64,000 nucleotides of DNA from Oligoflexus sp. FD111 (lineage in GTDB: Bacteria > Bdellovibrionota_B > Oligoflexia > Oligoflexales > Oligoflexaceae). Positions within the stretch are counted from its first letter, which is position 1. Each line of letters opens with the position of its first letter. The notes under the pieces are model-generated. The model worked only from the letters and a program-made list of their open reading frames with translations, was not told the origin of the DNA and did not search any database. The stretch spans positions 24,766 through 88,765 of the forward strand of contig JBMDZZ010000028.1 of the NCBI GenBank assembly GCA_048816425.1. Direction: 5' to 3'. Of this stretch, positions 39,948-63,858 are shown piece after piece. The position numbers and the translations under genes are program-made.

Positions 39948-39979
39948 TACCTATACAAAAGTATTGGGGTCCGTTTTTT

Positions 39980-40798: not shown

Positions 40799-40933
40799 CA
40801 TCACTATTTCGCGCTAGTACACTAGCGCAATGTCTTTTCCTGCTTGAGTTGTGATCTCAAAAGTAATACTTTGCCATTAGTCTTACTGCATCGCTTCTTG
40901 CGATGAAAAACTTCCAAATTCGAAGCAGATCAG

Positions 40934-42927: not shown

Positions 42928-44700
42928 ATGAGATGGAAAGAAAATAATTGGATAAAGTTTTTAGAAGGATACTGCAAAGGCAATGGGCAGATCCAGGACG
43001 AATATGTCCGGAAAATAGCTTCTGCACTTAGACTCGATGAGCCGCTTGAAATAAAATTTCCTTGGCAAGAAGAAATTCTCCAAAAATTTAAGGATCCAAA
43101 CAATCTGCAAGTTATTATATTGACTGGGACTGCTGGGGATGGAAAAACACGCCTATGTAGAGAAATATACCAGGAAGTTTGTGGAACCAGCTTTTCTGAA
43201 GAGTCATGGAACTCAAAAAGCTATTTTAGTAATGAATTAAGCACGATCGTTAAAGATTTTTCTGAACTGAAGGATGAGAAATCAAAGGTAATTGGTGAAT
43301 TGATAGAAGTGTTAAAAAATGGATTTGCTACAAAACAAATTCTAATCGCAGTGAATGACGGAGTGTTCATAGAAGCTCTAGATAGTTATATTGATGACGC
43401 TAATTTAGCAGATCATAAAAAGGAAGCTAAGTTATTAAAAGAGATAGTAGAAGATAAAATAAACATTGGAATTAGTAATTGTGAAAAGCAGGGACTTATA
43501 AATTTAATAAACCTTTCAAAATTGGATGCAAAAGAAAACTTCAAGTTAATTTTTAAAGCTATCCTTGACAATAGTGGATGGAATCAATGCAAAGATTGTA
43601 TTGGATCTATCGAAAATAGTTGCCCTATCTACTCTAAATATCAGATTTTTAAATCTCGCGCTGAAACAATCGAAAATTTGGCAAATATCATCTTGCTGCT
43701 GCAACTCAATAACCAGCATTTCACAATTAGAGAGCTACTCAATCTTGTATCGAATACTTTAGTGTCATCTATTCCTAAAAGCAAAAAATACCGGATCACA
43801 GACTTTGAGCATTCTAATAGCATTTTTACTTGCAAAACTATATCAACTATAAACGAAATCAACAAAGCGAATATAGAATCTAGCATAGAAGTAGGTTTTT
43901 GGGGCTTGAACCTCGGTCCTCAAAAGTCCTTATCTAAAAGGCCTTATTCAGAGATAAATAAACTGAGGTTTGGTGATACTTCCAGCAATTACTGGGATAG
44001 CCAGATATCTAAGCCGGAAGAAAGGCATTTTACTATACCAATTGATGAATTTCTTCGAGGAAGCGAAAAATCTGCTATTTACAGCGAATCTAGCAAAACA
44101 TGGATGCCAACTCTTCGTCGATCAAGAATGCAATTATATGCTTTTTGCAAAGACAATGATGAAAAGCTGTTTCATCTACAAAAGTATCCTTCATATGGCA
44201 TATATAAGGAAAAAATTTATAATCAGCTCACGGCAAAAAAAATGTGTAGTGATTTAAAGGTCAAAACGTCAATAATTCTTGCCTTGAACAGGGCTTTTCA
44301 TGGGCGCTTTATATCTGATAAAGCCGGGGAACTTTTCATTCCCGAGAAAGGCCAGGGATCTTTAGTATCTACTACAGTATTTCATGGTGAAGAAATTCGT
44401 GAAAAATATATTACGATTGAAACTTTAGGCAACGATTTTTCGTTATCGGGCGCTAGAATTGAACCAATAGTAAAAATATTTGTAGATAAGCAAGAAGTAA
44501 AAGTTTCGTTAACTGTTGAGGTCTTTGACTACCTTGATCAAGTATCCAAAGGTGCCCCACCTAATACAGCTGATCCACGAATCTATAAAAAACTTTGTAT
44601 TCTTCGATCTAAGCTAGCTTCAATGATTCGACCTAATAGAAGAATTGAAACCTATAAAATTAGTAATGGCCAATTTAAAATTGTCCCAATGGAGTTTTGA
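42928..44700 (+). CDS. DptF/SspF-like P-loop protein (first gene of a DndFGH/SspFGH-type PT-dependent restriction trio)
   Basis: 590 aa with an N-terminal Walker A ILTGTAGDGKTRLC. The assignment rests on its position, size and the identity of its two downstream partners. Confidence 0.55.
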   Translation: MRWKENNWIKFLEGYCKGNGQIQDEYVRKIASALRLDEPLEIKFPWQEEILQKFKDPNNLQVIILTGTAGDGKTRLCREIYQEVCGTSFSEESWNSKSYFSNELSTIVKDFSELKDEKSKVIGELIEVLKNGFATKQILIAVNDGVFIEALDSYIDDANLADHKKEAKLLKEIVEDKINIGISNCEKQGLINLINLSKLDAKENFKLIFKAILDNSGWNQCKDCIGSIENSCPIYSKYQIFKSRAETIENLANIILLLQLNNQHFTIRELLNLVSNTLVSSIPKSKKYRITDFEHSNSIFTCKTISTINEINKANIESSIEVGFWGLNLGPQKSLSKRPYSEINKLRFGDTSSNYWDSQISKPEERHFTIPIDEFLRGSEKSAIYSESSKTWMPTLRRSRMQLYAFCKDNDEKLFHLQKYPSYGIYKEKIYNQLTAKKMCSDLKVKTSIILALNRAFHGRFISDKAGELFIPEKGQGSLVSTTVFHGEEIREKYITIETLGNDFSLSGARIEPIVKIFVDKQEVKVSLTVEVFDYLDQVSKGAPPNTADPRIYKKLCILRSKLASMIRPNRRIETYKISNGQFKIVPMEF

Positions 44701-44704
44701 TATT

Positions 44705-46195
44705 ATGAAACAATTAGAATTCAGAGATATCAGAAAGGACTATAAACCCAACCTTAACCATGCAATTATAGAACAAATTTGGGGACATCGATTCAGAGTA
44801 GAGCAAAACCCAATGCTACTCCTTTGTGAGCTTTTGTGCGTACTTGAAAATCAGTTTTTCTCTAAAGAAACTGGAGAGATTCAGCAAGTTTTTTCTCCAG
44901 AACATACCCATCTAAAATACAAACATTCAGATAAGATTGGTTTACGATTTTTATTATATAAAAATGATAAATTGGAAAGCATTAAGAAAAGTAGTCAAAA
45001 TGAAAAAGAAAAATTTAAGATGCAAATTGAATATTTGAAAACTTCTGACCAACTTTCAGATTCGGACATCACTCATCTAGAGAAACAGTTCGACTCATTT
45101 GATAGCTTCTATAATTCATGCAAGATTTTGAGCTCATTAACTTTCGATCCATTGTCAAATAAACGATGGGGATCTAAGTTTGTATATCCCTTAAGTCGTG
45201 ATCTTTTATGGAGTGACTACAACAACATTAAGAAAAACTTCGATAGGCGATTTTTCGCTAGAGGAGGAGAACTTATCTATTTGATGCTTTCTAGAACATC
45301 GGAAACCAAAAGAGATGAACTAGAGCAGCTATTCGATGATTGGATGAAGAGCAAAGAGGATTCTTATTCTAAACTGGTCAAGATTATATATCCGGCGGTT
45401 ACCGAGCGTGATAAAGTAAACAAGCCTACCAGGCTTGGGCACCTACCATATGTTAGTTCAAGCTGCTTTGAAACACTTGCCGATGATCTTATTACAATCC
45501 TAAAGCTTGATTTAGAAAGGCTAGATAAAGCTAAACTTATGGCTGACATGATTGGTTTTCATATAGGCAATTATATTTTAACTATAGGTGAGATGTTCTC
45601 GGATAGCAATTCATCTGTCATAGAAAAGAAACCTCATTTCATTGTTGAGATTCCACTAAAGTCTTCAAACAGCATCAGGAAAAGTTCTATTGAAAGTATT
45701 TCCAGGCAAAAGAACAAATTAAAAAATACACTTAACAATCTCTTCCCCGCAATTGTGAATAATTATTTTTTTGAAAGCTTAGATGTCGAAGGTATAGATC
45801 AAGAAAAAAAAGAGGCAAAAAAATCAGCTGAAAAATACCTCTCAGACCACATTATGCCTTACCCTAATGCGTGTTTTCGGCACATTGGTTTTGTTTCAAA
45901 AAAACATTCGAGAAGCTATAGATACGTGTTTTCAGAAGATTTTCTTCAATCTATTGTTATAACAGTTCTTGGCGCAGGGAAAAGACTAGAATTTTCCAAA
46001 TTCATTAAGACTCTTGAGTATCGCTATAATATCTTTGTCGACAGAGTCCCGGATTCTAGCTATTCGATTTTACAAACCGACCTGAATAAAAACACGAAAA
46101 ACTTGTCAAATCTACTCTATCAAATGGGAATGCTTCGCCACCTCTCGGATGCATGTAGCTATGTTATCAACCCATATAGAGAGGATGCAATTTGA
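44705..46195 (+). CDS. DptG/SspG-like protein (middle gene of the trio)
   Basis: ATG 44705 lies 5 nt after the previous stop, with GGAG 11 nt upstream. 496 aa with no motif I can name. Its stop overlaps the next start (ATTTGA). Confidence 0.45.
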   Translation: MKQLEFRDIRKDYKPNLNHAIIEQIWGHRFRVEQNPMLLLCELLCVLENQFFSKETGEIQQVFSPEHTHLKYKHSDKIGLRFLLYKNDKLESIKKSSQNEKEKFKMQIEYLKTSDQLSDSDITHLEKQFDSFDSFYNSCKILSSLTFDPLSNKRWGSKFVYPLSRDLLWSDYNNIKKNFDRRFFARGGELIYLMLSRTSETKRDELEQLFDDWMKSKEDSYSKLVKIIYPAVTERDKVNKPTRLGHLPYVSSSCFETLADDLITILKLDLERLDKAKLMADMIGFHIGNYILTIGEMFSDSNSSVIEKKPHFIVEIPLKSSNSIRKSSIESISRQKNKLKNTLNNLFPAIVNNYFFESLDVEGIDQEKKEAKKSAEKYLSDHIMPYPNACFRHIGFVSKKHSRSYRYVFSEDFLQSIVITVLGAGKRLEFSKFIKTLEYRYNIFVDRVPDSSYSILQTDLNKNTKNLSNLLYQMGMLRHLSDACSYVINPYREDAI

Positions 46196-49100
46196 AAAGC
46201 TTAGCCCGTTACTATTTCAACAAAATCGTGAGAGAATACCAAGATTGGCTTCCTACCAATTCTACCCACGGTACACCCGGTAGAGTCATTCTCAGTGAGT
46301 TTGATTCAGATATTGTTAGTGAGATCTTTGATACATTCCATTCTTCTGACCTGAAGATTTCAGAGCCAGGGAGCGAGGATGGCATAATACTCCTTCTAGA
46401 AGATCATGAAATATATGTAGACATCAAAGAAAAAAAATATTCATTCGCCGACTTAACCCGAGAGCGAAATCGGGCCGGCAAGTTTTTTTGTGTCATGTTT
46501 ATAGCTGAAACAAAGCCTACTCACGAACAAGTTGCTAGTATTCATCAAGAAAGTATCTACGAAGAAGGAGAACTTGAAGAATGGGTAAATATATCGCTGT
46601 CCTATCATGCAAAAAGAGATCACTTCCCAATATCTCATACACGAGATATCGCTAAATTTCTAAACGAGTTGACACATAAAAAGTGGAATCATAGACCATC
46701 TATAAAGTTGAAGGAAATTAGCAGTTTCATTGCATCGGTAATTGATGACACTATCCAAGATGGTCTATTCTGGGATGCGCTTGGAAGAAATTTTACTAAA
46801 TTGGGAGGAATAAATCGCCTTGATAATTGTAGGAAGTTAGAAGGTGCAAAGTCTAAGTATAGATCTATTTTTCGAAAAGAGATCTCAAATACTCTCATTC
46901 CCGATCAGAACTTTTGGAGAGCTGTATACAAAGATCGGGAAGTAGAAAAATCAGAAATAGAAGATAACTTAAAAGACATTCTAGAAGAAGACTCAATTGA
47001 TTACTCATGTTTCTGTCAATCAATATCTGCATATTTCGAAAGCTACTTTGCTAACAGACCAGATACAAGTCTCCTTCAGCAGGAGATAAAAGACAAGTTC
47101 GATTCAACCTTTCCCTTCACCTCTGTACTTCATGCAAAAAAAACTAAATCTAAACTTCAGATTGGTGGGGAGACAAAAAAATTCTTATTAGAAAATGATG
47201 TAAATATTTCGGAAAATGATGAACTACTCCTTGAAAGCTTAGACTCCCGAGATAACAAGCCCGATAGGAATGAAATTAGGAGTTTCTACTTCCCTCGGCA
47301 GAGGCTACTTTCTACTGATCCTAAGTTAGATAAAGCATGGAAGAAAGAAGTCAGCTCAAGCAAAGATGTGGAATGTAGTAATTTACTTGATGGTATTCTC
47401 AAAGTATTGTCTAGCTACATACTTTTGACTGATATTGGCAACGATTCAGTATTGTTACGACAAAGAAGGGATAGAAGAAAGTCATCTCTTCAAAAAAAGA
47501 ACGTTGATGCCCTAAATTTCTTTCTTCATGAATATAAAGACCTCGACAAATTCTGGAGTCTTTTTGGTGATAAATTTGAACTCGATATAAAAGTATTTGA
47601 GTATGCTAATGATTTAGCCGATGAAAAACTAAAAGTTAGGAGTGGTAAACAAGCAAATATACTTGAATTTGAAATACTTCTTTATTCCATAGATCCGAAA
47701 TCGCCCTCTCAAGTATGGCACCTAAAATGGATCTTTGATCACAATGGCTTCGAAAGCATCAAACATTATGAATTGAATCATCTAAAATCAAGAAGAGGCT
47801 ACTACCACAAGCATGAATTAGCAATCGATCCTCTGTTTGTAAAACGTGCAGATAAGAACCCAAGTATAAAAAACAAAGAGATGTTTCAGGCGAGCGGGGC
47901 ATCGCGAAAACCTGGTTCAGTGGTCAAGAAAACAGATAAGCCAGATGATCTAATTTCAAAATTCCTTAAAGATCTTCAAAAGCACGGTCGACTATCAGAA
48001 CATGACCTAAATATACTAGAAAATTCTTATGAGAAATTTTATGAAGATTGGAAGCAGGCAATAGATCTGAATTCGACTACACCTATTACATCTGACCTTA
48101 CTTTCTTCAATTCTAGTTTCAATAGCTTTATTGACCTTATTGATAAAAAAACCTTAGAAGCTGAACACAAGAGAGAATTGTTTAAGCATATAAAAGCTGC
48201 CCACACTATTTCAGTAAAAGACACTCCTAATTATCTTTTATATCTTCCCTGGTCGCCCTTTAGTCTGCTAATGACATGGATGAAAAACAAAATTTTTCAT
48301 CAGATCGCAGGTTCTTATAAAAATGGATCGTTTAGAATTGGAAATCTTGATGATGGGGTGTTTCCTGATATTATAACAGAACTGGTGGAAAGCTTCGGCA
48401 ATACTTTTTATATAAATGATCACTCCGCCCCTCTTATATCAACGGCTTCGATCTGTGGCTATTATGAGTTTAGCTCTCTTGCTGATTCTAGAAATTCACT
48501 TTCAATCAAAGAAATAAAAAACGTCATGAATTCGGTGCTTCAAAAATTTTTGGAAGTCTATCCAAATCAGCGAGATCATATCGATATACTATTCGAGGGA
48601 ATAGGTTCATTTGAGCATCTTTTTGCTATCTATGAAGAAGCCTTAAAATTCTCAAGTGAACAAGAAGATCATTTTTCGATTCGAATACTATTCCACAGCA
48701 AGAATAATCGGGAGTTTTTAGATCTTTCATATGAAAGAATTACCGAAACATTCAACTCTCATTTATTAGACACTGATATTAAGATAGTGATAGTTGACAA
48801 CATTGAGTCCATTGAAGAGAACGAACTTGATTTAATTTTTAGCTTTGATCCTTTGTCTGTTGAAAAAAAATTGGCCCAGGACTCTGAAAAATTCTGCCTT
48901 TCGAATGAAAATTATGCGTTTTGGGAATATTGCAATACTAGAAAACTACCCTCAAACAAACTGTCTTTAAAAAGCTCTTTTGCGGTAAATAATCATAGAA
49001 TGGATTCAGTTTCAGCTGTCTTTCACAAGATTTCGATGATAACAGCTGCTAGGGATCGAACTGAGTCTTATTGTTTTGAAGTCTCACAGGACGTCATTAA

Positions 49101-51396
49101 GAATGAATTTTCCAAATCACTAAAAAAGTGCACCTGGCTAATAGTGTACGACTATTTATTGTCAAAAGAAACCTGCGCTGGAACTGCAACCGGGGCCAAT
49201 TCAAATAGAGTTTTACGATACGTTCAGGGAGAGGGCACAAAACGCTCCATGGCGATTGTTACTAGCAAGGACATTGACACCATAAAATCCAAGATATCAA
49301 ATAAGCTTCGGGATTTAAACCTTTCCACTGCCGGCAAAGTATCGAGCCTATGTGAGGAGCTATTTTCTATTTCTAATTCCTTCAGTGGCGATACTTTACT
49401 TAAAACCAGCGGTAATGGAAATTTTTCTCACGACCTTATAGGTAATGTCGGAACTATTCGATTAGTGGAAAGCCTGTTTGAGAATGCAAGAAAAATTGCT
49501 CCAATTTTTTGGGTTCACTTAGATGATTATGTCAATTGGTTTAAGTCATCAACTGAAGACGATTCCTTTAGGTATTTGGGGAAAAAGCGTTCATATATTT
49601 CTGATCTTTTAGGAATATTTTTAGATAGAACTGACGATAAAATAAGTCTCAATCTTATCGTTTGTGAATCCAAGTTGACAAATGGTTCGGATGATCAAAA
49701 GATTAAATCATGCAAGCAACTAGTAGCGACGTGTAGTTTAATCAAAGGTATGTTAGCTAGCTCGAAACTCTTCGATTACAAATATTGGGTAAATAAATTT
49801 TTGGAATTTGTTATTGAGAACTTTGACTTCAATCCTAATTTGCTGTCGTTTCATGATCTTATGAAAGTAAATGCGGAGGATATGGACATTTTTCTATCAG
49901 GAATTTCTTCAATACTGCTGTATGGAGATAATTCAGAAGAAACGAGATTTGAGAAAGTGAAAGAGGAAAACTATTTGCGACAGATTATTGTCTCTACAGA
50001 AGACACTAGAAAGATTTTTGATTCGATAAGTCGTGGTGAACATCCTGTAATTAAAGACCTCTACAACAACTTAGAGCCCATAAAACTAAATAGCTCTTCC
50101 CTATTAGGACATATAGTAGCTTATCCAAAAATCGATAACACTCAGAAAATTCCTGAAAGACCATCTTCTGAAGTTAAAGAAGTAAATGAAACAGACAACT
50201 TAGATAATACAACCGAAGAGGCGCTCCCGGTCTCTCGATGCTTGAGCCTTTTAAATAAAGCGATAAATTTTCTAGACGAAAATACTCTCACTGTTCAAGA
50301 TACAGACCCGGTTAATATCGATAGAGTTCAAGAAGGCATACGAACAATATTCTCTCATCATAACTTACCATCCAAGTTTTTAGAATCGCAAACTACTCCT
50401 AACTCAGTCGTAATAAAAGTAGCCGGAAACATAAAAATATCTGCAAAAAAAGTTCTTTCTATGCGAGATAATTTTGTCTCGGTAGCGAGTTTACATCTTC
50501 GAAAGGTTTATCCAGAACCAGGCTGCATGGTCTTGGTTTTCGATCGCAATACCAGAGAACGAGTCCTCTATGTTTCTCTTTTAAGAGAATCTTTAAAAAA
50601 TCGAAGAACAACCCTCGAATTAGACTTCAACAACAAAATCATTCTTGGTCTAGATGAGTTTAAAAAAAATATCTGTTACTATAGGCTGGATGGCCCAAGC
50701 CCTCATGCTCTAGTCGGAGGACAGACAAAGTCAGGAAAATCGGTTTTGATGAATAATATGATCATGGATCTTATTCTGACTAACGATCCAAAATATCTTA
50801 AACTCAGACTATTTGATCCAAAACAAGTTGAATTTTCGTCCTACAGCGAAGCGCCACATCTCGCACACCCAGTGGTAGTCGATAAGCAAGAAGCTGTTCA
50901 CTGGCTTAAAGATATCGAAGACTTAATGAACGCACGCTACGAAAGCTTCTCTAAACTAAACTTAAAAGACATAGAGTCTTACAATAATAAATACCCAGAG
51001 AATAGGATGTCTCGACACATCGTTTTCTTTGATGAGTTAGCTGACTGGATTTTGGACGATCATTTTAAGGAGAATGCTAAGGATATTATAATTAGAGTTT
51101 CTTCCAAAGGGAGAGCTGCAGGTGTACATCTAGTAATAGCAACTCAAAGGCCAAGCAATGATGTCGTCTTCCCACTTCTAAGGGCGAATTTGGATACTAA
51201 AATTGCATTGAAAGTCGATCGAGATCAAAACTCGGTTATCATTTTAGGGGAATCTGGCGCCGAAGACCTTTTAGGGTATGGGCATGGTATAATTAAAACA
51301 GAGGGTGAAACCCACTATATTCAAGGTGGCTTTACTGAGGCCTCAATTTTTGAGCAGCTTATAGACCTAGCTATTGAATTTTGGAGAAACCAATAA
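46192..51396 (+). CDS. DptH/SspH-like giant protein with a C-terminal FtsK/HerA-type motor ATPase
   Basis: 1734 aa with a TTG start overlapping the upstream stop. C-terminal motifs are Walker A VGGQTKSGKSV, Walker B IVFFDELAD and HLVIATQRPS (the FtsK/SpoIIIE hallmark). Confidence 0.7.
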   Translation: MKSLARYYFNKIVREYQDWLPTNSTHGTPGRVILSEFDSDIVSEIFDTFHSSDLKISEPGSEDGIILLLEDHEIYVDIKEKKYSFADLTRERNRAGKFFCVMFIAETKPTHEQVASIHQESIYEEGELEEWVNISLSYHAKRDHFPISHTRDIAKFLNELTHKKWNHRPSIKLKEISSFIASVIDDTIQDGLFWDALGRNFTKLGGINRLDNCRKLEGAKSKYRSIFRKEISNTLIPDQNFWRAVYKDREVEKSEIEDNLKDILEEDSIDYSCFCQSISAYFESYFANRPDTSLLQQEIKDKFDSTFPFTSVLHAKKTKSKLQIGGETKKFLLENDVNISENDELLLESLDSRDNKPDRNEIRSFYFPRQRLLSTDPKLDKAWKKEVSSSKDVECSNLLDGILKVLSSYILLTDIGNDSVLLRQRRDRRKSSLQKKNVDALNFFLHEYKDLDKFWSLFGDKFELDIKVFEYANDLADEKLKVRSGKQANILEFEILLYSIDPKSPSQVWHLKWIFDHNGFESIKHYELNHLKSRRGYYHKHELAIDPLFVKRADKNPSIKNKEMFQASGASRKPGSVVKKTDKPDDLISKFLKDLQKHGRLSEHDLNILENSYEKFYEDWKQAIDLNSTTPITSDLTFFNSSFNSFIDLIDKKTLEAEHKRELFKHIKAAHTISVKDTPNYLLYLPWSPFSLLMTWMKNKIFHQIAGSYKNGSFRIGNLDDGVFPDIITELVESFGNTFYINDHSAPLISTASICGYYEFSSLADSRNSLSIKEIKNVMNSVLQKFLEVYPNQRDHIDILFEGIGSFEHLFAIYEEALKFSSEQEDHFSIRILFHSKNNREFLDLSYERITETFNSHLLDTDIKIVIVDNIESIEENELDLIFSFDPLSVEKKLAQDSEKFCLSNENYAFWEYCNTRKLPSNKLSLKSSFAVNNHRMDSVSAVFHKISMITAARDRTESYCFEVSQDVIKNEFSKSLKKCTWLIVYDYLLSKETCAGTATGANSNRVLRYVQGEGTKRSMAIVTSKDIDTIKSKISNKLRDLNLSTAGKVSSLCEELFSISNSFSGDTLLKTSGNGNFSHDLIGNVGTIRLVESLFENARKIAPIFWVHLDDYVNWFKSSTEDDSFRYLGKKRSYISDLLGIFLDRTDDKISLNLIVCESKLTNGSDDQKIKSCKQLVATCSLIKGMLASSKLFDYKYWVNKFLEFVIENFDFNPNLLSFHDLMKVNAEDMDIFLSGISSILLYGDNSEETRFEKVKEENYLRQIIVSTEDTRKIFDSISRGEHPVIKDLYNNLEPIKLNSSSLLGHIVAYPKIDNTQKIPERPSSEVKEVNETDNLDNTTEEALPVSRCLSLLNKAINFLDENTLTVQDTDPVNIDRVQEGIRTIFSHHNLPSKFLESQTTPNSVVIKVAGNIKISAKKVLSMRDNFVSVASLHLRKVYPEPGCMVLVFDRNTRERVLYVSLLRESLKNRRTTLELDFNNKIILGLDEFKKNICYYRLDGPSPHALVGGQTKSGKSVLMNNMIMDLILTNDPKYLKLRLFDPKQVEFSSYSEAPHLAHPVVVDKQEAVHWLKDIEDLMNARYESFSKLNLKDIESYNNKYPENRMSRHIVFFDELADWILDDHFKENAKDIIIRVSSKGRAAGVHLVIATQRPSNDVVFPLLRANLDTKIALKVDRDQNSVIILGESGAEDLLGYGHGIIKTEGETHYIQGGFTEASIFEQLIDLAIEFWRNQ

Positions 51397-51586: not shown

Positions 51587-53620
51587 TTACACTCTAGTAG
51601 TGGTTTCATTCCTCAATGTAAAAAATCTAAATCCCTTAATCTCTAAATCTTTTTCACTTAGTGCCTGGTTTAACTCTTCGAAGTTTTTCGGCTCTCGTCC
51701 TTCCAATATCTTCATTAGCCTCGCGTCAAAATTTCTTTGTTTTTCATATTCTAAGAACGAACTATCCATAAATAAAGACTTGTTATATAGCGCAGTTGGC
51801 TTGAATTGGCCGGAGTAATCAAAAAAACTTATTTCTTGTGTCGCTAGATTGACTTTTACCCTTTCTTTTAAAGCTGGGACTGATTGACTATCAAAACAAT
51901 CGTATTTCAAAAATGTACATTTATGTGAGCCTATATGGACTTTAATTAAGTCAATATTATCGAGATCCCCAAATAGTTTTTCAGCACAGCCTACATATAT
52001 TCTGATCAATAAGGGTAGACGTCCAAGAAATTTTCTGTGAAAAGTATAGGATTTATGTGGCAAAAATAAACCGCTGTTGATTTCTCCTAATGAATCTCTA
52101 CAACACTTATCAATATCATTAACATTTGCAATTTTACTCAATTCTTGCAAACCGCGTTCTTTGGCGCGACTGTAACTTCCAAAAAACTCGCTAACATCCT
52201 TTTGCAGAGAATCAGGTAAATTTTTATATGGCTTATTTTTGCCAAAGTGAGACAATGCAAAATATAGTATTAAATCTTCAATTCTTTCTTCGCGAGCCTT
52301 TTTGAATAGTGAAGTGTCATAATAATTGCTTATAACTTTAAAAATTTTCTTAGGTGGACCAATTAATTCTGATAATCGTTCGATTTTTTGCACTTCTTGG
52401 ATCGCAGGTATTCGTCCAAGATTAAGACAAGTCTTCCAAAATTGATCAACTTGATCTTTGTTTTCATCAATTTTGAGTTTGAGTTGATCCAATTTTTCCT
52501 TAGGAAATGAACTTAAAGTTTCCCACTTGGAATGCCGTCTATTTCTTTTTTCGTAAAATAATTGCTCTTCGTTCTTATCTTTAAAAACAAAGAATATACC
52601 AGGGGATATGGGAATTACTGGATCAGCAAGAATTTCTTCAAGAAAATTCTTAAGTTCCGCTTGGGTATAGTATTTTTGGAAAGTATTTCTTGATGTGATG
52701 ATACCATCTTTGTAAGGAGTATATCTATTGACGAAAGACTCTGTGCCTATCATAGCTGAAATAACTAAAAGTTTATCTGTTAAATGATAGGCTTTTTTTA
52801 TAGCTTCTATTCGTTCTTTTTTTTCTTCAATTACGTTAATGACAAATCCCAAATTTACGATATCAGCAGATCTAATATCGGAATCAGGATTAAAGTGAGG
52901 ATCCCATCCTTCCGCTTTAATACCGAATGCTTTTAGTTCACGTAGGTCATCACCTCTACCACACCCATAGTCAAAAACTGTATACCTTCCATCAAGATAG
53001 CCATGCTTGCCAAGGCACTTAATGGGAGCTGAAAAATCACTGCGTGAGATTGCCGTTTTATATCTATGAATATCAGTATCTAACGAGGACTTTCTGAAAA
53101 GCCGACCATCTAATATTTGGTAGCCTTTACTCTGTATTAAGTGTTCCCAATTTTTTTTGAATCCAATGTTCTTAGTATCCTCATAGAGACCAGCATTTAC
53201 TCCTTCTTGAGTAATTTCTGAGAATTCTAGATAGTAAGGATGGTCATTAGGAACAAAAAGCTCTTTGCGATGAAGGATTGGCGGATTAAAAGACGATTTG
53301 AATGATAACTCCCGCATCTTACCTGATGTGAGATCAACCGTGACGCTTTTTTCAAGAGTTGGATATGCATCTTCAAAAAAACTTGGGTAGTATAGCAGTG
53401 TGATTTTGAATACAAACTTGTGAATTTTTAGAACATTCCAGTTGGGGTCTTTCAATTCAAGTTGCGCCGTCACCTCTTCAAGAAATCGGTTTAAAGAGGC
53501 TGGAATTCTGCACAACGCGTCTTTGTGCAAATATATTGAATCTGGTAAGTGTTTTCCAATTTTGATAGATTTAATCAGATTAGAAAAATTTTCATGTTTT
53601 AAGCTTAAATGAAACATCAT
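51587..53620 (-). CDS. large SAM-dependent methyltransferase-like protein of the 'DNA phosphorothioation-associated putative methyltransferase' type
   Basis: 677 aa. The central class I SAM motif is VFDYGCGRGDDLRELKAFGIKAEGWDP, with long flanking regions. It is convergent with the DptH-like gene. The family name is recalled from NCBIfam/TIGRFAM naming. Confidence 0.55.
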   Translation of the reverse strand: MMFHLSLKHENFSNLIKSIKIGKHLPDSIYLHKDALCRIPASLNRFLEEVTAQLELKDPNWNVLKIHKFVFKITLLYYPSFFEDAYPTLEKSVTVDLTSGKMRELSFKSSFNPPILHRKELFVPNDHPYYLEFSEITQEGVNAGLYEDTKNIGFKKNWEHLIQSKGYQILDGRLFRKSSLDTDIHRYKTAISRSDFSAPIKCLGKHGYLDGRYTVFDYGCGRGDDLRELKAFGIKAEGWDPHFNPDSDIRSADIVNLGFVINVIEEKKERIEAIKKAYHLTDKLLVISAMIGTESFVNRYTPYKDGIITSRNTFQKYYTQAELKNFLEEILADPVIPISPGIFFVFKDKNEEQLFYEKRNRRHSKWETLSSFPKEKLDQLKLKIDENKDQVDQFWKTCLNLGRIPAIQEVQKIERLSELIGPPKKIFKVISNYYDTSLFKKAREERIEDLILYFALSHFGKNKPYKNLPDSLQKDVSEFFGSYSRAKERGLQELSKIANVNDIDKCCRDSLGEINSGLFLPHKSYTFHRKFLGRLPLLIRIYVGCAEKLFGDLDNIDLIKVHIGSHKCTFLKYDCFDSQSVPALKERVKVNLATQEISFFDYSGQFKPTALYNKSLFMDSSFLEYEKQRNFDARLMKILEGREPKNFEELNQALSEKDLEIKGFRFFTLRNETTTRV

Positions 53621-54155
53621 GTTCGCTAATCCTTACGGGATGTAATCTGCCATTTTTTTCTTTGAGCCAGTATATTTCTCGTGAACAGTCTTCACCTAGA
53701 CTAACATGGATAGGACGGTCCTTTCCGTAGTAGTATATGCGATCAAAATGGCAGTTACCTGTAATCCAATCTAAGACAATTCTCATGTCACTGTTAGCTA
53801 CAATGAAATCACAGGCTGCACCGCCCCTTTTACAGATTCTATTTCCATGATTGTTACACTCGTATCCAGCATGTTGATCTCGATCTGGAGCTATACGGGG
53901 GCGCTTATTTTTCTTAATTCTGTTAGCCAAGCTTGACGAGCAAAAACCGTAAGTCAAATGTAGTTCGCCAAATGCCTCCCATACAGGATCTAGAATCGTA
54001 CGGCCTAGATCTTGTATTGCGCTCCAAGTCCTCGGGTCTGATGGCAAATTACTTATCGTTGTCTTCTTCCATGTTTCACTACATTCAAAAAAGTCTCTAA
54101 AAGTAAAATATTTGCAACAGTGCTCATCAGGATCAAAGGGAAATGGAGGTGGCAC
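53592..54155 (-). CDS. peptidase M15/LAS-fold (zinc D-Ala-D-Ala-carboxypeptidase-like) small protein, coupled to the methyltransferase-like gene
   Basis: GTG start with AGGA 9 nt upstream. The pattern FTFRDFFEC ... ILDPVWEAFGELHLTYGF ... DQHAGYE ... GAACDFIV ... DRPIHVSL fits the H...D...H arrangement of M15-like proteins. It overlaps the downstream gene by 29 nt. Confidence 0.4.
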   Translation of the reverse strand: MPPPFPFDPDEHCCKYFTFRDFFECSETWKKTTISNLPSDPRTWSAIQDLGRTILDPVWEAFGELHLTYGFCSSSLANRIKKNKRPRIAPDRDQHAGYECNNHGNRICKRGGAACDFIVANSDMRIVLDWITGNCHFDRIYYYGKDRPIHVSLGEDCSREIYWLKEKNGRLHPVRISEHDVSFKLKT

Positions 54156-54740: not shown

Positions 54741-56179
54741 TGAGGTGCGTAGAACATAATTGGAGAAAATCGACTCTTTAACTAAGCTATTATAATTGTG
54801 AAGGAGATTCGATCGATGCAAAAGTAGAGACCCCCGTCGTTCTATCCCACCCCAGCAAAAAGCCGACATTGCCTGCGATGTCCAGCCCGCTTCATCAATC
54901 CAGCAAGGGCTTGACCAGTTTGGAATTACCAGTAGCTTGTATTACAAATGGTCAAGACTGCTTGAGGTTGGAATGAACGATAGCCTTCGCAACTCAAAAC
55001 CCCTAAAATCTGTCGACTTGAAGCGCCTAGAGGCTGAAAATAGGCAGTTCTCAACCAATCACTGGAATTGACAAGTTTAAAAAAAGATTGAGCTTGGATC
55101 CATGAAGGAGGGCCTCAGAGTGAGCTACGAATATAAAGTTGAAGTAATCGAATTTGTCGAACACCAACAGGAGCTTGGTTAATCGCAGAGCAAGACTTTT
55201 GGAACTCTAGAGATTTCGCCTTCTACTTACTATAGCTGGAATAAGGCTATCCTTAATGCAGAAAAGCCTAAGAAACCAGCCAAGCCACATCATATGAAAT
55301 TGACTCCAGATGAAAAAGAACTCATCATCGCAACAAAAAAGACAATCCAACGATGAGGCATAGGCTGATACAGGGCTTGAACCAAGCTGAAGGCTGCTAT
55401 ATTTCGCCAAGCTCGGTTTTTACCGTCCTAAAGGCCAATGGGTTGGTTGAGCCTTTTGAGCGGCGTGAAGCGCCGTGGAAAGAGCCTAAATATGAAGTGC
55501 GAGCAAGGAACTTGTTGTGGGGAACAGATTGGACGAAGTTCAAGATCAATCACGAAACCTGGCAGCTTTTGACTCTCATTGACTTTTTTTCCAGAAAAGT
55601 CATCGCTTGGGATATTCAGCCTAACATCAGTGCGGGCCATATCAAGGCACTATAGCCAAGCGCTTGCAGCCCGGCAACTAACGAACAAAAAGCAAAAGCC
55701 GAAGCTTCGGGCGGATAAAGGTTCCCCCTAACACTTCTTGGGTCATCAAGGAGTTTATTGCAAACCTTGCAGGCTAGCTATCGCTTGCGCTTGTCAGAGG
55801 TCCTGCCGACAATGCAATAACAGAGCGGTTTTACGGCACCAAAAAGCAAGAAGAGATCTTTGTGGTTGGTAGCTACAATCAGCTAAAACTGAAATAGGAA
55901 ACTATATCGAATTTTATAATGAATATAGGTCACATCAAGTGATATGGAATTTTACGCCCGACTATGTTCATGAGCTGAACAATAAATCGAAAGTATAGGC
56001 CGAGCTAGAGACCATGAAATATGACACCAAACGTCGTCGCCGTGAGTGCTGGTAATTAAAAGAAGTTTACGAATTACAGCAGAAATTCAAGCAAGAGTTG
56101 ACGAAGGCGTCAAGTCAGAATATCACACAAACTTGATCGATTCTCTCCAAGTTCGACTTAAGCACCACATAATATCGTT
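54741..56179 (+). mobile_element. IS3-family insertion sequence, copy B (1439 bp), pseudogenised, same orientation as copy A
   Basis: It has the same termini as copy A (TGAGGTGCGTAGAAC ... GTTCGACTTAAGCACCACA). orfA reads MQK* and carries an internal deletion. The orfB-like frame (REAPWKEPKYEVRARNLLWGTDWTKFKINHETWQLLTLIDFFSRKVIAWDI) is broken by stops. Confidence 0.75.
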
Positions 56180-56323
56180 TAGTATGGATAGGATTTAGAT
56201 TATATATTGAAAATGAGGGAGATTAATGTAAACTGCTGCACTAAGTGAAGTGCTGAAATATAATCTACCAGAATTTGAACTATTACCAAAGTTTCTGTCA
56301 TCTTGATGGATCTAATAAATACT

Positions 56324-58465
56324 TCATGGTAGCAGCGCGAGCTGGAGCCCATACTCGGCAATTATATCGTTAAGTACCTCCACTGTATCAGAAAAGTTGA
56401 CTGAATGTTCTGCAAACTCTTTTACACGTTTAAGCTCTTGTTCAATTAGTTTTCTTTCATGGTGTCGATCAAGAACGTTATTTGGCAGTCGGATGAAAAA
56501 GTCAAATATCCTTGCTTTGTCTTTTCCTGGTGCTTTTCTGAGAACGCGCCCTCTTCTTTGTATGTACTGCCTTGGATTTCGGCTGCTAGCAAGTATATAG
56601 GCATCCTGGCAAGCAGGAATGTCAACCCCTTCATCAAGACACCTAATTGCAGCTAAAACAAGTACGTTCCCTTGGTTGAATTCTTTTAAAATCATTTGGC
56701 GTTGGAGGCTTGACTCTCGAGATGTGTAACGAGAAGCGCGGTAACCAATTGAATCTATTGCTGAAGTCACAGCATCTATTTGTCGCGATGATTCGTTAAT
56801 TTCCTCATCGCCAACAGAACCGTCACCACAATATATGAGTGTTCGCGACGTGATACCCCGCTGTTTGATCTGCTCTATAAGGGATACTAGCTTGTTCTTT
56901 GCACTCCCTAAAATCCGTGATCGCTCGAACATAAGCAGCTCAAGTCCGCCTGCTCTTGAGCTAATAGCCCTATCGATATTTCCCCCACTTGAAGCTAGCG
57001 CTTTAGCGATTCTGTCCGATAGCTCCTGATATTCTTCATACTCGCTATCTGTAAGTTCAACTATCTCAATATGATATTCGTAAGGGCACAGAACACCTAA
57101 ACTGAGCGCTTCTTCTATTCCAAATGTGTAGACGACGTCCCCATAGAAGTCTTCCAGCCTTGCAGTGCCTTCTTGATCCCCATATCGCTCGTATGTTGCT
57201 GAAAGACCCATTCTCCACTCGCTATGGGAAGGAAGCGATTTGTAATAGTTTTCAGTACCATGATAATGACACTCATCACCAATAAACAACAAACTTTCCC
57301 CTGGAACTCTATGTATTGCTTTTTGAAACTCGCCAGATAAAAAACTCTTATTTACAACAACCACAGCTTCAAAATTTGTGCGACTACTAATAAATGCATT
57401 AACACCATTATTTAACTCTTCCAGCCATTTCATCTTTCCTCCGAAACATTTAACTGGAAATATGTTAAAATCACGTAATTCTTCTACCCATTGTTCTACA
57501 AGATTTTGGTATGGTACTGCGATCACGATGAACAATCGACGTCTATTCTCGAAGACCTTTGCAGCGCCATAGATTGCGGTTAAGGTTTTTCCAGCTCCTG
57601 TTGCCATATTGAAAATACCTTGGAAATTATGGGACTTCCACGAATTTAGAGCCGATCTTTGATGAGGCCGTATTTCAAAACTAACCGGAATCTCGGGGCC
57701 ATAGATTTTTTCTTCACGGAGTGCTTTATATTTCAACGCTAGCGCGACTTCATTGTCAGGTCCGATTTCATTACGAGGTTTATGTAACTCGAGAATTTTT
57801 TCTGCGACAGCTTTAGGAAAGTCGAGTGTTATGGTTCCCTTTGAATTCCCATTCCACAAATCTTCAAACATCTGTTTATAAGGCTGAGAGTGTGCAGTTT
57901 CTGCCTGATTCCAGCTCCTGAAGACATTGATCACTTCATAGTTGAAACCAGATTCTAGAGCATGTAGAGAGTCATTTGCTGACCCTTGGAATACAATTAC
58001 GTTGTCCAACTCATCAGTCATTATGCCAATTTTTGCATGAAACATTCCCTTTGCTCTGAGTGCAACTTTAATTTCGATCAACTCTTTTTCAACCAGATAG
58101 CTAAGAGCTTCCCACCTCATTTTTATCAGATCGTTTCCAGTAGATCCTTGCACAATCTGGATGAACTGCTCTGTCAGGGACTCATTACAGCGAATAAGAA
58201 CTTCTTCTCTGCTTTTGTATCCCTTTGAGATAGCCTCCCGATCTCTCTCGTCCAGCACTGCCCCTACTAGTAGACGCATGCGTCCATTATTTCGTATAAA
58301 CGCAGTTAATCCTTGTGTAGCAAGAGAGATCATAGATGCTGAAAAGAACCCTACCGCGCGATCAAATCTGACGCTTTGGCTCAAAGATGGTATATAGAAT
58401 TCTCTGAGGATATCATCAGTCTCAGAACTGTATACTGCTTTCAAATTCGAAAATCTGTAGCTCAA
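56324..58465 (-). CDS. PLD-nuclease + SF2 (type III restriction res-like) helicase fusion, of the 'DNA phosphorothioation system restriction enzyme' type
   Basis: HKD motif FHAKIGIMTDELDNVIVFQGSAN. Helicase motifs are I NMATGAGKT, II FIGDECHY, III LGLSAT and VI QRRGRVLR. The TTG start overlaps the upstream stop. Confidence 0.75.
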   Translation of the reverse strand: MSYRFSNLKAVYSSETDDILREFYIPSLSQSVRFDRAVGFFSASMISLATQGLTAFIRNNGRMRLLVGAVLDERDREAISKGYKSREEVLIRCNESLTEQFIQIVQGSTGNDLIKMRWEALSYLVEKELIEIKVALRAKGMFHAKIGIMTDELDNVIVFQGSANDSLHALESGFNYEVINVFRSWNQAETAHSQPYKQMFEDLWNGNSKGTITLDFPKAVAEKILELHKPRNEIGPDNEVALALKYKALREEKIYGPEIPVSFEIRPHQRSALNSWKSHNFQGIFNMATGAGKTLTAIYGAAKVFENRRRLFIVIAVPYQNLVEQWVEELRDFNIFPVKCFGGKMKWLEELNNGVNAFISSRTNFEAVVVVNKSFLSGEFQKAIHRVPGESLLFIGDECHYHGTENYYKSLPSHSEWRMGLSATYERYGDQEGTARLEDFYGDVVYTFGIEEALSLGVLCPYEYHIEIVELTDSEYEEYQELSDRIAKALASSGGNIDRAISSRAGGLELLMFERSRILGSAKNKLVSLIEQIKQRGITSRTLIYCGDGSVGDEEINESSRQIDAVTSAIDSIGYRASRYTSRESSLQRQMILKEFNQGNVLVLAAIRCLDEGVDIPACQDAYILASSRNPRQYIQRRGRVLRKAPGKDKARIFDFFIRLPNNVLDRHHERKLIEQELKRVKEFAEHSVNFSDTVEVLNDIIAEYGLQLALLP

Positions 58466-58926
58466 AATGTTATAGTTCCTTGCATTGGAGTAACTTCACT
58501 ACCAATGAAATTATTTTTAGCTAAATTAGTTACGATAGTTTCTAGGCCTATGAGATCTTGTGGCATTTCATCATGCCATGATTTGATGATGGATAGTCCA
58601 CCATTTGCAAATTCCTCAAAGCAACGTACCATTTCATCACTATTTTCTTCTTTGAATATAGTTATACTTTTTGAAGCCGCTAGCGCAATTAGATATATGA
58701 CTCTCATGGCCTCCTTATCTTTTGAAAATATAAACTCCTGTATATCATCTTTTGGTTCACCATGGTCGAACGGAACTCTCTTATTTTTTGCATAACCAAG
58801 AACAGCGGCGAAACATAGAAAATCCTTGATAGTAGCAAACACACTCTTTCCTGTGAGTTCAGTAGGCTTCTTAGTAAACATATCATATAGATCATCGTAT
58901 CTTTTAGATCGAAATATGTTCCGCAA
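58462..58926 (-). CDS. small helical protein between the ATPase and the PLD-helicase (possibly 'dnd system-associated protein 4'-like)
   Basis: 154 aa from a TTG start (or 139 aa from ATG 58881). It is tightly coupled on both sides. I can name no catalytic motif. Confidence 0.45.
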   Translation of the reverse strand: MRNIFRSKRYDDLYDMFTKKPTELTGKSVFATIKDFLCFAAVLGYAKNKRVPFDHGEPKDDIQEFIFSKDKEAMRVIYLIALAASKSITIFKEENSDEMVRCFEEFANGGLSIIKSWHDEMPQDLIGLETIVTNLAKNNFIGSEVTPMQGTITF

Positions 58927-58927
58927 T

Positions 58928-60976
58928 TTAAGTTACCTCCTCAATCGAGACGTCACCTGAATCTCCAAGCTGACTTAATGCATTTAGAGTTATTGCACCA
59001 AGGTGGTACCTTGTCTCATTGATGCTAGTAGTATCACTTCCTACCGATGATAAGACTAAAATATATTCCTTACCAATAAACTGCTTAGTTCTAGATGACT
59101 GCAAACCTGCCGACTGAAAGTCGGAAACAAGAATTACTACTTGCTCAGCGAGCTCCGGAATTGATTCAACAATTACTGACTGAAAAGTACTATCAAGTTG
59201 ACCGAAAGGCGCGTCGAGTACAAGAGGTGCCACAGTTCCTGGTATAAATAAACGACTAGATTCATGTAATCTCTTAGAGCAAAAATTTATTAACGCGGCT
59301 GTGAAAGCAAGTGTTAACATTTGGTTTTCACCTGTACTTCTCGATCCATAAAAGTTAGTCTCTTTGTTTCTCAGCTGTAGATTGAAATCCGAATCGAATT
59401 CAGCATCATAGCTTCGATGCATTTTACTTACGTACTGATTCAAAATTTTTCCGATTTCATTGCGAGCAATTAACTCATGCTCATTTGCTACGTCTTCCAA
59501 ATACGTGGCTAAATTTCCACAGATATCTCTTAGTTTTTTTTGCTTTATCTTCCTGGGAACTGTTGCTGTCATCTTATCGTAGTCTTCCTGCTGCTTTTTA
59601 AGAAGTGGTTTCAACTCCATCTTGATCTTTCGACTTATATCACCAGTTTCCGATGTCAATTGTTTTATAATTTCCAAGCTCTTTTGTTTTTTCTCGTTAG
59701 CGTCCCTAACTGCTTCGATGTCTACTTTTCTCAATTTTTCCTGTAATTCATCGATTTCGTCATCTAATTTTTTAATTTTACTGTGTGACGCCTCAATCCT
59801 TTTAGAGATTTGCTGATATGAGTGTCTTGCAGGCCTATACCTATCCTGAAAATATTTGACAGCAGATTGGGCTTCAATTGCTTTTTCTTGAATGTTCTTG
59901 TCTCCGGCATCAGTTAAAAGTGAACGGATTTTTTCATATTCAATTTCTCCTTCAGAAAATGAACGACCACAAATACATTCTAGGCTATTTAGAATATTCA
60001 TAATAAAAGGCTCTTGATAATCAGCGGGTAGCTTACCTCTAATCTCAGGAAGATCAATCAGATCCTCAGTATCGTTTGCTAAGGAAAAAGACATGCTATA
60101 GATAGCGTCTTTTCTTAGCCACTCGAAAAGTAAAACCTTATTCTCATTGAGCTCCCGAGTTTGTCCCTGCAAATCAATTATTTTAGATTGTAGAGATTCT
60201 TGAATTTCCTTACTCCCAGCATTATTTTCTAAAACCTTGTCTGCGTCAGACATAGCATCTTGCGCTAGATCAATTTGGGATTTCTTTTTTTCAATTGTGC
60301 TTTCAAGTTCGGAAATTCGATCCAGTATACTTTCGATATTTCTGGCAAGATCTTTTATTTGTTGATCGTCTAAATCATCTGACAGTTCCTTGTTGAATTT
60401 TCTTTCGACTTGGCGCAAATCTGCAATCGTAGTATCTAATGTAGTACTCCCAAGTATTTGTCGAATGGCTGTTTTTACATTCTTTTTATTTGCATTGCCT
60501 TGCATAGATTGAGCCTTTTTTTCACCATGAAAGAAAAATTGACTCGACATCTCGGGAGGTACTACTCTGTTGACTAGAGCTTCGATTCTAGGAACTGGAG
60601 TGCTGCTTCCAAATTCTGATTTTTCGTATAGGGTGCAGGAATGTTTCGACTTAAACTTGCCATTCCCTAGAAAAGTGTATTCAACCAATCGATTTATCTC
60701 ATATATTTTTTGCTCGAATTCGAACTGTAAGTTAACACTAGAGGTTGACCCACCATTTTTCTGGGCGTTGAAGTTTAGCAACATGTCTGGATTCTCGAAG
60801 TCAGGTTGAGTTTTCCCATGTAGAGCCCAGCAAATTGCATTCAGAATTGTGGATTTACCAAAGCTATTCATTCCATAGATGACAGTCACATTCTGGTTTT
60901 CTCCAGAAGCAAATTCTATGGTGTTTTGGCCCCTGAACTGTCTAAAGTCCGTCAGAGTTAATTTCTTTAGTCGCAT
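58928..60976 (-). CDS. DndD-like SMC/ABC-type ATPase
   Basis: I chose the start at ATG 60976 (MRLKKLTLTDFRQFRG). Walker A is YGMNSFGKSTILNAICWALHG. A long coiled-coil middle region follows, then GENQMLTLAF (signature-like) and Walker B/D-loop PLVLDAPFGQLDS. Confidence 0.8.
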   Translation of the reverse strand: MRLKKLTLTDFRQFRGQNTIEFASGENQNVTVIYGMNSFGKSTILNAICWALHGKTQPDFENPDMLLNFNAQKNGGSTSSVNLQFEFEQKIYEINRLVEYTFLGNGKFKSKHSCTLYEKSEFGSSTPVPRIEALVNRVVPPEMSSQFFFHGEKKAQSMQGNANKKNVKTAIRQILGSTTLDTTIADLRQVERKFNKELSDDLDDQQIKDLARNIESILDRISELESTIEKKKSQIDLAQDAMSDADKVLENNAGSKEIQESLQSKIIDLQGQTRELNENKVLLFEWLRKDAIYSMSFSLANDTEDLIDLPEIRGKLPADYQEPFIMNILNSLECICGRSFSEGEIEYEKIRSLLTDAGDKNIQEKAIEAQSAVKYFQDRYRPARHSYQQISKRIEASHSKIKKLDDEIDELQEKLRKVDIEAVRDANEKKQKSLEIIKQLTSETGDISRKIKMELKPLLKKQQEDYDKMTATVPRKIKQKKLRDICGNLATYLEDVANEHELIARNEIGKILNQYVSKMHRSYDAEFDSDFNLQLRNKETNFYGSRSTGENQMLTLAFTAALINFCSKRLHESSRLFIPGTVAPLVLDAPFGQLDSTFQSVIVESIPELAEQVVILVSDFQSAGLQSSRTKQFIGKEYILVLSSVGSDTTSINETRYHLGAITLNALSQLGDSGDVSIEEVT

Positions 60977-60998
60977 GATATAGATCCATACAAGTATA

Positions 60999-61139
60999 TT
61001 AATCGAGTGAGTTAAGGATAATTTCCTGGATTTTTTTTTGACGTTCTTGTGGTGATGTATTTTCTGCAATCAACGTACGAATCGTATCAACAATCAATTC
61101 TGCTAAGCTAATCAAATCATCATCTATCTCAAAGGGCAT
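60999..61139 (-). CDS. 46-aa acidic ORF heading the DndD-like operon
   Basis: Sequence MPFEIDDDLISLAELIVDTIRTLIAENTSPQERQKKIQEIILNSLD. GGGGAG lies 9 nt upstream of the ATG, and the ORF ends 22 nt before the DndD-like start. Confidence 0.3.
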   Translation of the reverse strand: MPFEIDDDLISLAELIVDTIRTLIAENTSPQERQKKIQEIILNSLD

Positions 61140-63852: not shown

Positions 63853-63858
63853 AAAGAT

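Follow-up and report, generated by a model that had tools for sequence, protein, structure and literature searches.

Does a Pbe system respond to any phosphorothioate (PT) mark in DNA, or only to the kind of mark made by its own partner genes? The question is raised by a locus of Oligoflexus sp. FD111, contained in a stretch of 64,000 nucleotides (nt) of contig JBMDZZ010000028.1 (positions 24,766 to 88,765), which is referred to here as the window. Four genes on its minus strand, at positions 56324 to 61139, stand beside a set of Ssp-type PT genes, and it is near certain that they are a complete PbeABCD cassette, or CxC ATP-binding cassette (ABC) ATPase system, in the order B-C-D-A. The cassette itself probably belongs to a Dnd-linked lineage of Pbe. 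The locus is a natural construct for asking whether Pbe reads the PT mark generically or specifically.

The PbeABCD system was named in 2019 by Xiong et al., who described PbeA as a helicase, PbeB as a protein of 66 amino acids (aa), PbeC as SMC-like and PbeD as a protein of 152 aa (PMC6459918). The archaeal DndCDEA-PbeABCD pair gives about 10^4-fold protection, for which all four pbe genes are required. This protection depends on PT itself and not on contact with Dnd proteins, and the replication of viral DNA is blocked (PMC6459918). In the re-annotation by Rakesh et al. (2024), PbeA is an HKD endoDNase with a superfamily 2 (SF2) helicase, PbeB a small and rapidly evolving protein, PbeC an ABC ATPase with a CxC hook, and PbeD a cognate of DndE (PMC10853773). 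The two groups disagree over PT sensing by Pbe/CxC systems and over DNA cleavage by the HKD domain (PMC6459918, PMC10853773). For a PT island the system described here is ordinary in itself; its merit lies in the pairing of Ssp with Pbe, in a rule by which Pbe clades follow their partners, and in what appears to be an exception to that rule.

The four genes of the cassette

The first gene encodes a small acidic PbeB-like protein of 46 aa (60999..61139), whose 10 acidic and 4 basic residues give a net charge of about -6. It is followed by pbeC (58928..60976), a CxC-type ABC ATPase whose 682 aa include a coiled-coil insert and the hook C334-I-C336; by pbeD (58462..58926), a helical DndE cognate of 154 aa of the kind called 'dnd system-associated protein 4'; and by pbeA (56324..58465), a 713-aa fusion of an HKD nuclease of the phospholipase D (PLD) family with an SF2 DEAH helicase. 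All four are on the minus strand, and pbeD and pbeA both start with TTG. The sequence-only reading had described four coupled genes, and the open reading frame (ORF) list and a direct reading of the junctions bear this out: 22 nt separate the stop of the 46-aa ORF from the ATG of pbeC, the junction of pbeC and pbeD is TAAATTG (a gap of 1 nt), and pbeD and pbeA overlap by the 4 nt TTGA. The genes are thus coupled in translation, and the shared strand and these short distances are compatible with co-transcription. Shine-Dalgarno-like sequences precede pbeB (GGGGAG, 8 nt 5' of the ATG), the TTG of pbeD (GAGGAGG) and the TTG of pbeA (AAGGAA). For PbeC the length refers to the ATG start; an upstream TTG, taken as the start in the mechanical ORF list, gives 713 aa. 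The TTG start of pbeD is in the same register as the N-termini of 29 relatives (MRNIFRSKRY vs MRGFRRSKKY). An Rfam scan of 54000-64000 gave no match at E values up to 0.1.

By the definitions of Xiong et al. and Rakesh et al. the window encodes all four Pbe parts. Pbe-type PT-linked systems had been mentioned in the sequence-only reading, and PADLOC names two of the proteins accordingly: its PbeA model matches residues 7-691 of the 713-aa protein (784 bits, E 3e-236) and its PbeC model the ATPase (456 bits, E 6e-137). With such E values the observation is far from chance. What had been taken for a trio with an additional ORF is a full four-gene system, in which the 46-aa ORF is PbeB and the 154-aa protein PbeD. 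All proteins are of full length, having the lengths of their relatives. Because the four parts and the catalytic residues are all present, we call the cassette complete, and to judge from its sequence it is apparently functional. It is a divergent member, with 48% identity or less, of a kind of system that is already known.

PbeA matches ResIII, Helicase_C and DEAD in Pfam, together with a weak match to PLDc_2. In an alignment of 22 sequences its HKD motif (H143-x-K145...G161-S-A-N164) falls on invariant columns, as do the intact GxGKT (290-294), DECH (397-400), SAT and QRRGR (636-640) motifs; helicase motifs I, II, III and VI are all retained. Every helicase motif quoted by the sequence-only reading is therefore found on invariant columns, and those quoted for the ATPase are present as well. 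That reading had also named the family of 'DNA phosphorothioation system restriction enzyme' proteins. The corresponding model, TIGR04095, is by far the best NCBIfam match of PbeA, but it covers only the helicase half (residues 258-707), and its 491.1 bits are below the equivalog-domain cutoff of 600. A score under the cutoff fits a divergent member. The closest PbeA homologue among 5.8 billion proteins has 48% identity, and those of the GTDB species representatives have at most 47%.

Is the ATPase a DndD, as its resemblance to that protein had suggested? The DndD model TIGR03185 gives it 108.6 bits against a cutoff of 245.85, while the genuine DndD neighbours found in relatives score 504-601 bits. 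A central CxC, the hook of the sister clade PbeC, is present in 71/71 ATPases adjacent to PbeA and in only 1/28 of the DndD-like ATPases of the same loci. In the window protein, C334-I-C336 sits in the middle and is the predicted hook. The identification as DndD can be ruled out on both grounds. The protein keeps its Walker A (GMNSFGKST, at residue 35), an SxGE signature at 547 and a Walker B at 586-595 (VLDAPFGQLD, at residue 586). Columns conserved at 93% or more are all kept, with the exception of G38S and T42S in a still valid Walker A, GMNSFGKS.

The sequence-only reading had further named the family 'dnd system-associated protein 4' among those accompanying dnd loci. The 154-aa protein belongs to it: TIGR04062 ('DNA phosphorothioation-associated protein 4') scores 76.0 bits, above the cutoff of 74.25, and PF27807 is on record for an identical Logan gene. 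An AlphaFold2 model, made from an alignment of 42 homologues that were collected with an alignment as the query, has a predicted local distance difference test (pLDDT) value of 85.6 and a predicted TM-score (pTM) of 0.83. When this model was compared with 350,542 PDB chains by Foldseek, the top two matches were the DndE structures 7X4E and 4LRV, with target-normalised TM-scores of 0.60 and 0.59; matches other than DndE reached at most 0.24, and the E values of the DndE matches are about 1, which is not significant alone. Alignment of the PbeD and DndE profiles with hhalign is co-linear, weak and not significant (E 0.039). Searching PDB sequences with the PbeD profile gave 0 matches at E values up to 10, and a database search with the single sequence found only itself. 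The predicted model thus weakly, if specifically, suggests a DndE-like fold.

The relatives have a family of small ORFs directly 5' of PbeC with the pattern ...EIIELER.YFFEKRN.KTERQKKLR.IIE.... A hidden Markov model (HMM) of this PbeB family, built without the window, ranks the segment that contains the 46-aa ORF 1st among 1846 window segments (E 0.087). As a single target the ORF has an E value of 2.3e-4 with an HMM of the Dnd clade (35 residues aligned) and of 7e-5 with one of the Ssp clade, through the core ERQKKIQEII; the comparison of the two small-protein HMMs assigns it to neither clade. Independent gene calls place genes of 55-60 aa at the PbeB position in the metagenomic relatives L082, L084 and L085. 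Could the 46-aa ORF have arisen by chance? Its position, the family HMM and the equivalent called genes of the relatives rule this out.

Partners of Pbe in the window and among its relatives

The PT modification genes of the window are sspB-sspC-sspD-sspA (35401..42058, plus strand), recognised by PADLOC with 191 bits for SspB, 515 for SspC, 366 for SspD and 307 for SspA. The restriction module sspF-sspG-sspH (42928..51396, plus strand) comes after them, with 795, 634 and 529 bits. Next, on the minus strand, is the gene of a 677-aa protein of TIGR04096, 'DNA phosphorothioation-associated putative methyltransferase' (51587..53620; 618 bits against a cutoff of 150), whose Pfam methyltransferase signal is weak, at 20 bits. 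Overlapping it upstream is the gene of a 187-aa partner (53592..54155, minus strand), for which no match was found in Pfam, NCBIfam or PADLOC. A 154-aa ORF in the interval between sspA and sspF (42384-42848, plus strand) likewise has no match in these three collections, and no counterpart in 80 loci of relatives.

Two degenerate copies of an IS3-family insertion sequence (IS) bracket the Ssp genes and the methyltransferase pair. They are direct, both frameshifted, about 85-90% identical (80-95% per segment) and 20,980 bp apart. The left-hand copy is at ~33747..35198 (plus strand); the right-hand copy, of rve and helix-turn-helix fragments, is at ~54741..56169 (plus strand), between pbeA and the methyltransferase pair, with its end at ~56169 set by blastn. 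The arrangement resembles an old composite transposon, and the IS-bounded module that the sequence-only reading described is real. A distance of 154 bp separates the right-hand copy from the cassette, which is outside the module; the methyltransferase and its partner are on the other side of that copy, within the module. Across the junction of pbeA and the IS the sequence has 100% identity to an independent Logan contig. An identical piece of 3.4 kb is present in run SRR31093534. A partial third IS3 copy is present at 32762-32973, and between it and the left-hand full copy is a gene for a 195-aa class-I methyltransferase (33033-33620). Beyond the cassette, directly 5' of pbeB, there is a gap of ~1.1 kb (61140-62250) with no long ORF, repeats, Rfam match or dnd remnant; in Dnd-linked relatives this position is often occupied by dndB.

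How often is Pbe found with PT genes elsewhere? We surveyed one genome per GTDB species, taking 80 PbeA loci (L002-L081), at most 47% identical to the window protein, with flanks of 10 kb; 79 could be scored. Their ORFs were labelled with the window proteins and the remainder clustered, and representative labels were verified by HMM (DndB-E, SspB/C/D, PbeA/C, SspE). SspB/SspC are within 10 kb of PbeA in 42 of the 79 loci, and DndBCDE in at least 25; two of the latter initially counted as having none, since DndC was cut by the edge of the locus. PT modification genes are thus present within 10 kb in at least 67 of the 79 (at least 85%), and at most 12 have neither Ssp nor Dnd, several of these on short contigs. 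The sequence-only reading had proposed that genes found mainly in genomes without PT genes would make an independent system. With at least 67 PT-linked loci among 79, this is not how the relatives are distributed.

Among the surveyed relatives, then, Pbe adjoins SspBCD about as often as DndBCDE. The SspE-family cluster, two members of which PADLOC confirmed, is represented in 18 loci, and 11 of these are Ssp-linked; about 31 of the 42 Ssp-linked loci have no gene of the SspE cluster or of SspFGH within 10 kb. The order of the Pbe genes tracks the clade, being C-D-A or A-C-D.

In 18 of the 80 loci, Dnd-linked and Ssp-linked alike, a homologue of the TIGR04096 protein is encoded no more than 10 kb from PbeA. 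The gene is usually beyond the modification module and away from Pbe (L002, L007, L011, L019, L020, L049, L054, L062). L004 and L051 have it directly beside Pbe; in L066 its distance to pbeD is ~0.2 kb, and in L064 one gene separates it from Pbe. A homologue of the 187-aa partner adjoins the TIGR04096 gene in L064 (17229-19963) and L019, and in L007 the two are convergent and 1.2 kb apart. In L002 (18148-20904; residues 747-899 of 918) and L004 (3987-6530; residues 676-842 of 847) the partner is fused to the C-terminus of the methyltransferase, which is a Rosetta-stone link between the two. On the evidence of the survey, the island in the window is a variant of a recurring three-part island, of PT module, Pbe and TIGR04096, to which SspFGH has been added.

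Other genes adjoin Pbe in some of these loci. A protein of 836-908 aa, with segments like the RpoA C-terminal domain and sigma-70 region 4 and a weak similarity to MzaA, is encoded directly beside Pbe in four (L005:4386-7112, L040:12140-14650, L041, L042). The closest metagenomic relatives have an extra gene of the PAPS-reductase family (385 aa) 5' of Pbe (L082; L084:5867-7024). In L082 this region (2647-7136) also contains a GmrSD-type (DUF262/DUF1524) gene and an intact IS3 (HTH_Tnp_1 and rve); IS3 therefore adjoins Pbe in that lineage too.

The mark that the cassette may read

Both IS copies beside the Ssp block have decayed, yet the genes of the cassette are intact; this contrast speaks for selection that continues to act on the cassette in its present context. 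Which mark would it read? The reading that we prefer, and to which we give an even chance, is that an intact PbeABCD cassette uses a modification signal of the host, its likeliest single partner being the PT made by the neighbouring SspBCDA. That the mark actually read is this Ssp PT, a pairing suggested by adjacency alone, deserves at most the same credence and perhaps somewhat less; functional coupling of the cassette to the Ssp module is plausible. PbeC would dimerise through its CxC zinc hook and, together with PbeD as a DndE-like DNA binder, would scan DNA and report the state of modification of the backbone. The effector would be PbeA, with its SF2 motor translocating at the expense of ATP and its HKD phosphodiesterase site nicking or cutting, and the small acidic PbeB may act as a regulator or stabiliser. 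PT would not be installed by the cassette; the modification made by the host would be the signal of self or of activation. Pbe would be a second effector, beside SspFGH, on a single SspBCDA modification module. The sequence-only reading, too, had thought a sensor and effector more likely than a modification system, in line with what has been published on Pbe/CxC systems (PMC6459918, PMC10853773).

Several observations weigh against coupling to Ssp in particular. The PbeA tree divides almost perfectly by type of partner: in 61 of 63 cases a protein and its nearest neighbour are both Ssp-linked or both Dnd-linked. When PbeA, PbeC and PbeD are concatenated (1521 columns), a neighbour-joining (NJ) tree gives the window cassette a sister group that is Dnd-linked only, in 200 of 200 bootstraps. 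In this tree the cassette does not fall within the Ssp-linked Pbe clades. Its median identities to the Dnd-linked and Ssp-linked clades are 44.3 and 42.3% for PbeA, 28.4 and 26.5% for PbeC, and 34.0 and 30.5% for PbeD; the p values for the single proteins, 1e-5 to 6e-4, are overstated since the sequences are related. The three best metagenomic relatives (L082, L084 and L085, from outside the survey) are all flanked by DndB-DndC-DndD-DndE. It is therefore likely that the cassette belongs to the Dnd-linked lineage, by a small margin between clades and an NJ tree only. The Ssp module for its part looks unrelated to those that accompany Pbe elsewhere: its SspC has 21-26% identity to theirs and a different PADLOC sub-model as its best match. 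The Ssp block is also bracketed by IS and already has SspFGH, homologues of which occur in none of the surveyed loci, so that Pbe with SspFGH is seen in 0 of 79 relatives. SspFGH does not accept Dnd-type PT (PMC8092258), which indicates that effectors can be specific to one type of mark. As to the mechanism, in the archaeal system no cleavage of viral DNA was detected despite a conserved HKD site (PMC6459918). Lastly, a scan of 55800-62400 for promoter and terminator consensus found fewer sites than in shuffled sequences and none where they would be expected.

This division of the phylogeny suggests a Pbe sensor adapted to a particular kind of PT mark. The cassette is then an apparent exception to the rule of clade by partner, being a Pbe of Dnd lineage beside Ssp and SspFGH. 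Is it merely a neighbour of Ssp? It could be served by a cognate dndBCDE elsewhere in the genome, or be an orphan that has lost it, with the Ssp-methyltransferase block juxtaposed by an IS-mediated rearrangement and Pbe blind to the single-stranded PT of Ssp. We regard this as unlikely, though less so than the other rivals. The grouping with Dnd-linked cassettes speaks for it, as does the fact that the Ssp module is a different subtype with its own effector, SspFGH. In Dnd-linked relatives the dnd genes either directly precede pbeC or directly follow pbeA, and in the window both of these positions, and exactly these, are disrupted: one is the gene-poor stretch of 1.1 kb (61140-62250) and the other the decayed IS (54741-56169). 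Solitary cassettes are also common, since 320 of 553 pbeAC had no dndCD within 10 kb (PMC6459918). On the other side, no dnd gene or remnant is present in the window, where tblastn with 63 DndB/C/D/E proteins gave only cross-matches to PbeC and SspD; an orphan of no use should have decayed as well, but the Pbe genes are intact beside a decayed IS; and the margin in similarity between the clades is about 2-3.5 percentage points, with a tree made by NJ only.

The cognate mark might instead be base methylation by the TIGR04096 protein and its 187-aa partner, in a CxC system resembling restriction-modification that was later split by the IS. The cassette shares its strand with the methyltransferase pair, only an IS copy lies between them, and TIGR04096 is near PbeA in the 18 loci noted above, at times adjoining Pbe. 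Methylases together with an accessory domain have been reported for CxC systems (PMC10853773), and 155 of the 320 solitary pbeAC are near methyltransferases (PMC6459918). The explanation is nonetheless improbable. In most loci the gene is beyond the Dnd or Ssp module, as a third component of the island would be rather than a partner of Pbe; 61 of 79 relatives have no TIGR04096 within 10 kb; and there is the weakness of the Pfam methyltransferase signal.

A modification-independent abortive infection, in which PbeB restrains a PbeC-PbeD-PbeA nuclease machine until a phage factor removes it and host DNA is cut, was put forward as an alternative by Rakesh et al. (PMC10853773) and accords with the conserved HKD site, with a rapidly evolving small protein as first gene of the cassette and with the relatives (12 of 79 at most) that have no PT module nearby, but we consider it the least probable of the rivals, since archaeal protection was lost when PT was abolished (DndA C344S) and a PT-modified virus escaped (PMC6459918), since the great majority of relatives are PT-linked, and since an irrelevant mark would hardly account for a phylogeny that co-varies with the type of PT.

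If the cassette does use a host modification signal, as we prefer, its lineage and its neighbours could be reconciled by a swap of partners, in which a Pbe of the Dnd lineage, elsewhere always a companion of double-stranded PT, has stayed intact next to an SspBCDA-SspFGH block mobilised by IS and now reads either the single-stranded PT of Ssp or the methyl mark of TIGR04096, against a background of common SspBCD-Pbe adjacency and of Pbe clades specialised by mark. We think such a swap possible, on the doubtful side. If true, a single modification module would feed two unrelated effectors, SspFGH and Pbe. The common SspBCD-Pbe configuration would then also explain many pbeAC and sspBCD loci that earlier surveys counted as solitary. 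The 2019 survey of Pbe sought only dndCD and so counted its 320 pbeAC as solitary (PMC6459918); the 2021 survey of Ssp sought only sspE and sspFGH, and neither was near about 84% of 2,678 sspBCD clusters (PMC8092258).

The wider window and comparison with known systems

The rest of the window (4-32032 and 62249-63852) is a toxin and defence island. It encodes an RHS-repeat protein (4-3885), a Fic protein (5779-7299), a YhcG/DUF1016 PDDEXK nuclease (8819-9724), a second RHS-repeat protein with FG-GAP and SpvB domains (15174-21428), an AbiEii toxin (24010-25017), a DUF4268 protein (25213-26385), a DUF87/HerA-like ATPase (28159-30294) preceded by a 394-aa gene without family assignment, a NOV_C protein (30935-32032) and a PT-HINT pretoxin protein (63070-63852). 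A direct repeat of 160 nt, 76% identical, is found at 7995-8154 and 22191-22350, 14.2 kb apart.

Among known systems, Type I/III Res proteins, PLD_Helicase and NF042964 likewise fuse a ResIII/DEAH translocase to a nuclease domain. Cross-matches of PbeA to NF042964 (E 1e-22) and PLD_Helicase (E 6e-11) are far below the cutoffs (80 vs 1100 bits), and the nuclease of Type I/III Res is PD-(D/E)xK while that of PbeA is HKD. Type I/III restriction-modification was rejected as an identity for the cassette: the HsdR model TIGR00348 gives 27.6 bits against a cutoff of 284, and the cassette has no HsdM, HsdS or Mod gene.

The DndD-DndE pair of DndBCDE is closer. The predicted fold of PbeD is nearest to the crystal structures of DndE, while its sequence gives no match to DndE models. 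PbeC differs from DndD in its CxC, which all but one of the DndD-like neighbours do not have, and in its score under the DndD cutoff. DndBCDE includes a sulfurtransferase of DndC type, and none belongs to the Pbe cassette here.

With the CxC ABC-ATPase/DndE-cognate systems (PMC10853773) the cassette shares the CxC hook at the apex of a coiled coil, the DndE-like cognate, the HKD endoDNase-SF2 helicase, the small rapidly evolving protein and, as an optional feature, a nearby methylase with an accessory protein. The small protein is mostly disordered in those systems; here and in the relatives it is helical-looking, to judge from the sequences, with a conserved ER..K...II core. Those systems are described as standing in tandem with DndD-DndE or alone, with no mention of Ssp neighbours and no connection drawn with Ssp, whereas here Ssp is the neighbour. 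Targeted full-text searches of the open literature found no paper that describes the pairing of Ssp and Pbe.

The nearest described counterpart is the PbeABCD of Haloterrigena jeotgali A29, where the same four components are located beside PT modification genes and are co-transcribed (PMC6459918). The order there is A-B-C-D; here it is B-C-D-A, which is common in the nearest bacterial relatives. PbeB has 66 aa in that archaeon and 46 here. The neighbour is DndCDEA in H. jeotgali and SspBCDA, with single-stranded PT, in the window, and only here are SspFGH and a TIGR04096 methyltransferase in the same island. That two restriction partners of different mechanism can draw on one PT module in a single island has a precedent in SspABCD, which SspE and SspFGH share with additive effect (Wang et al. 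2021, PMC8092258). In that case the second effector is SspE; here the candidate for the second effector is Pbe.

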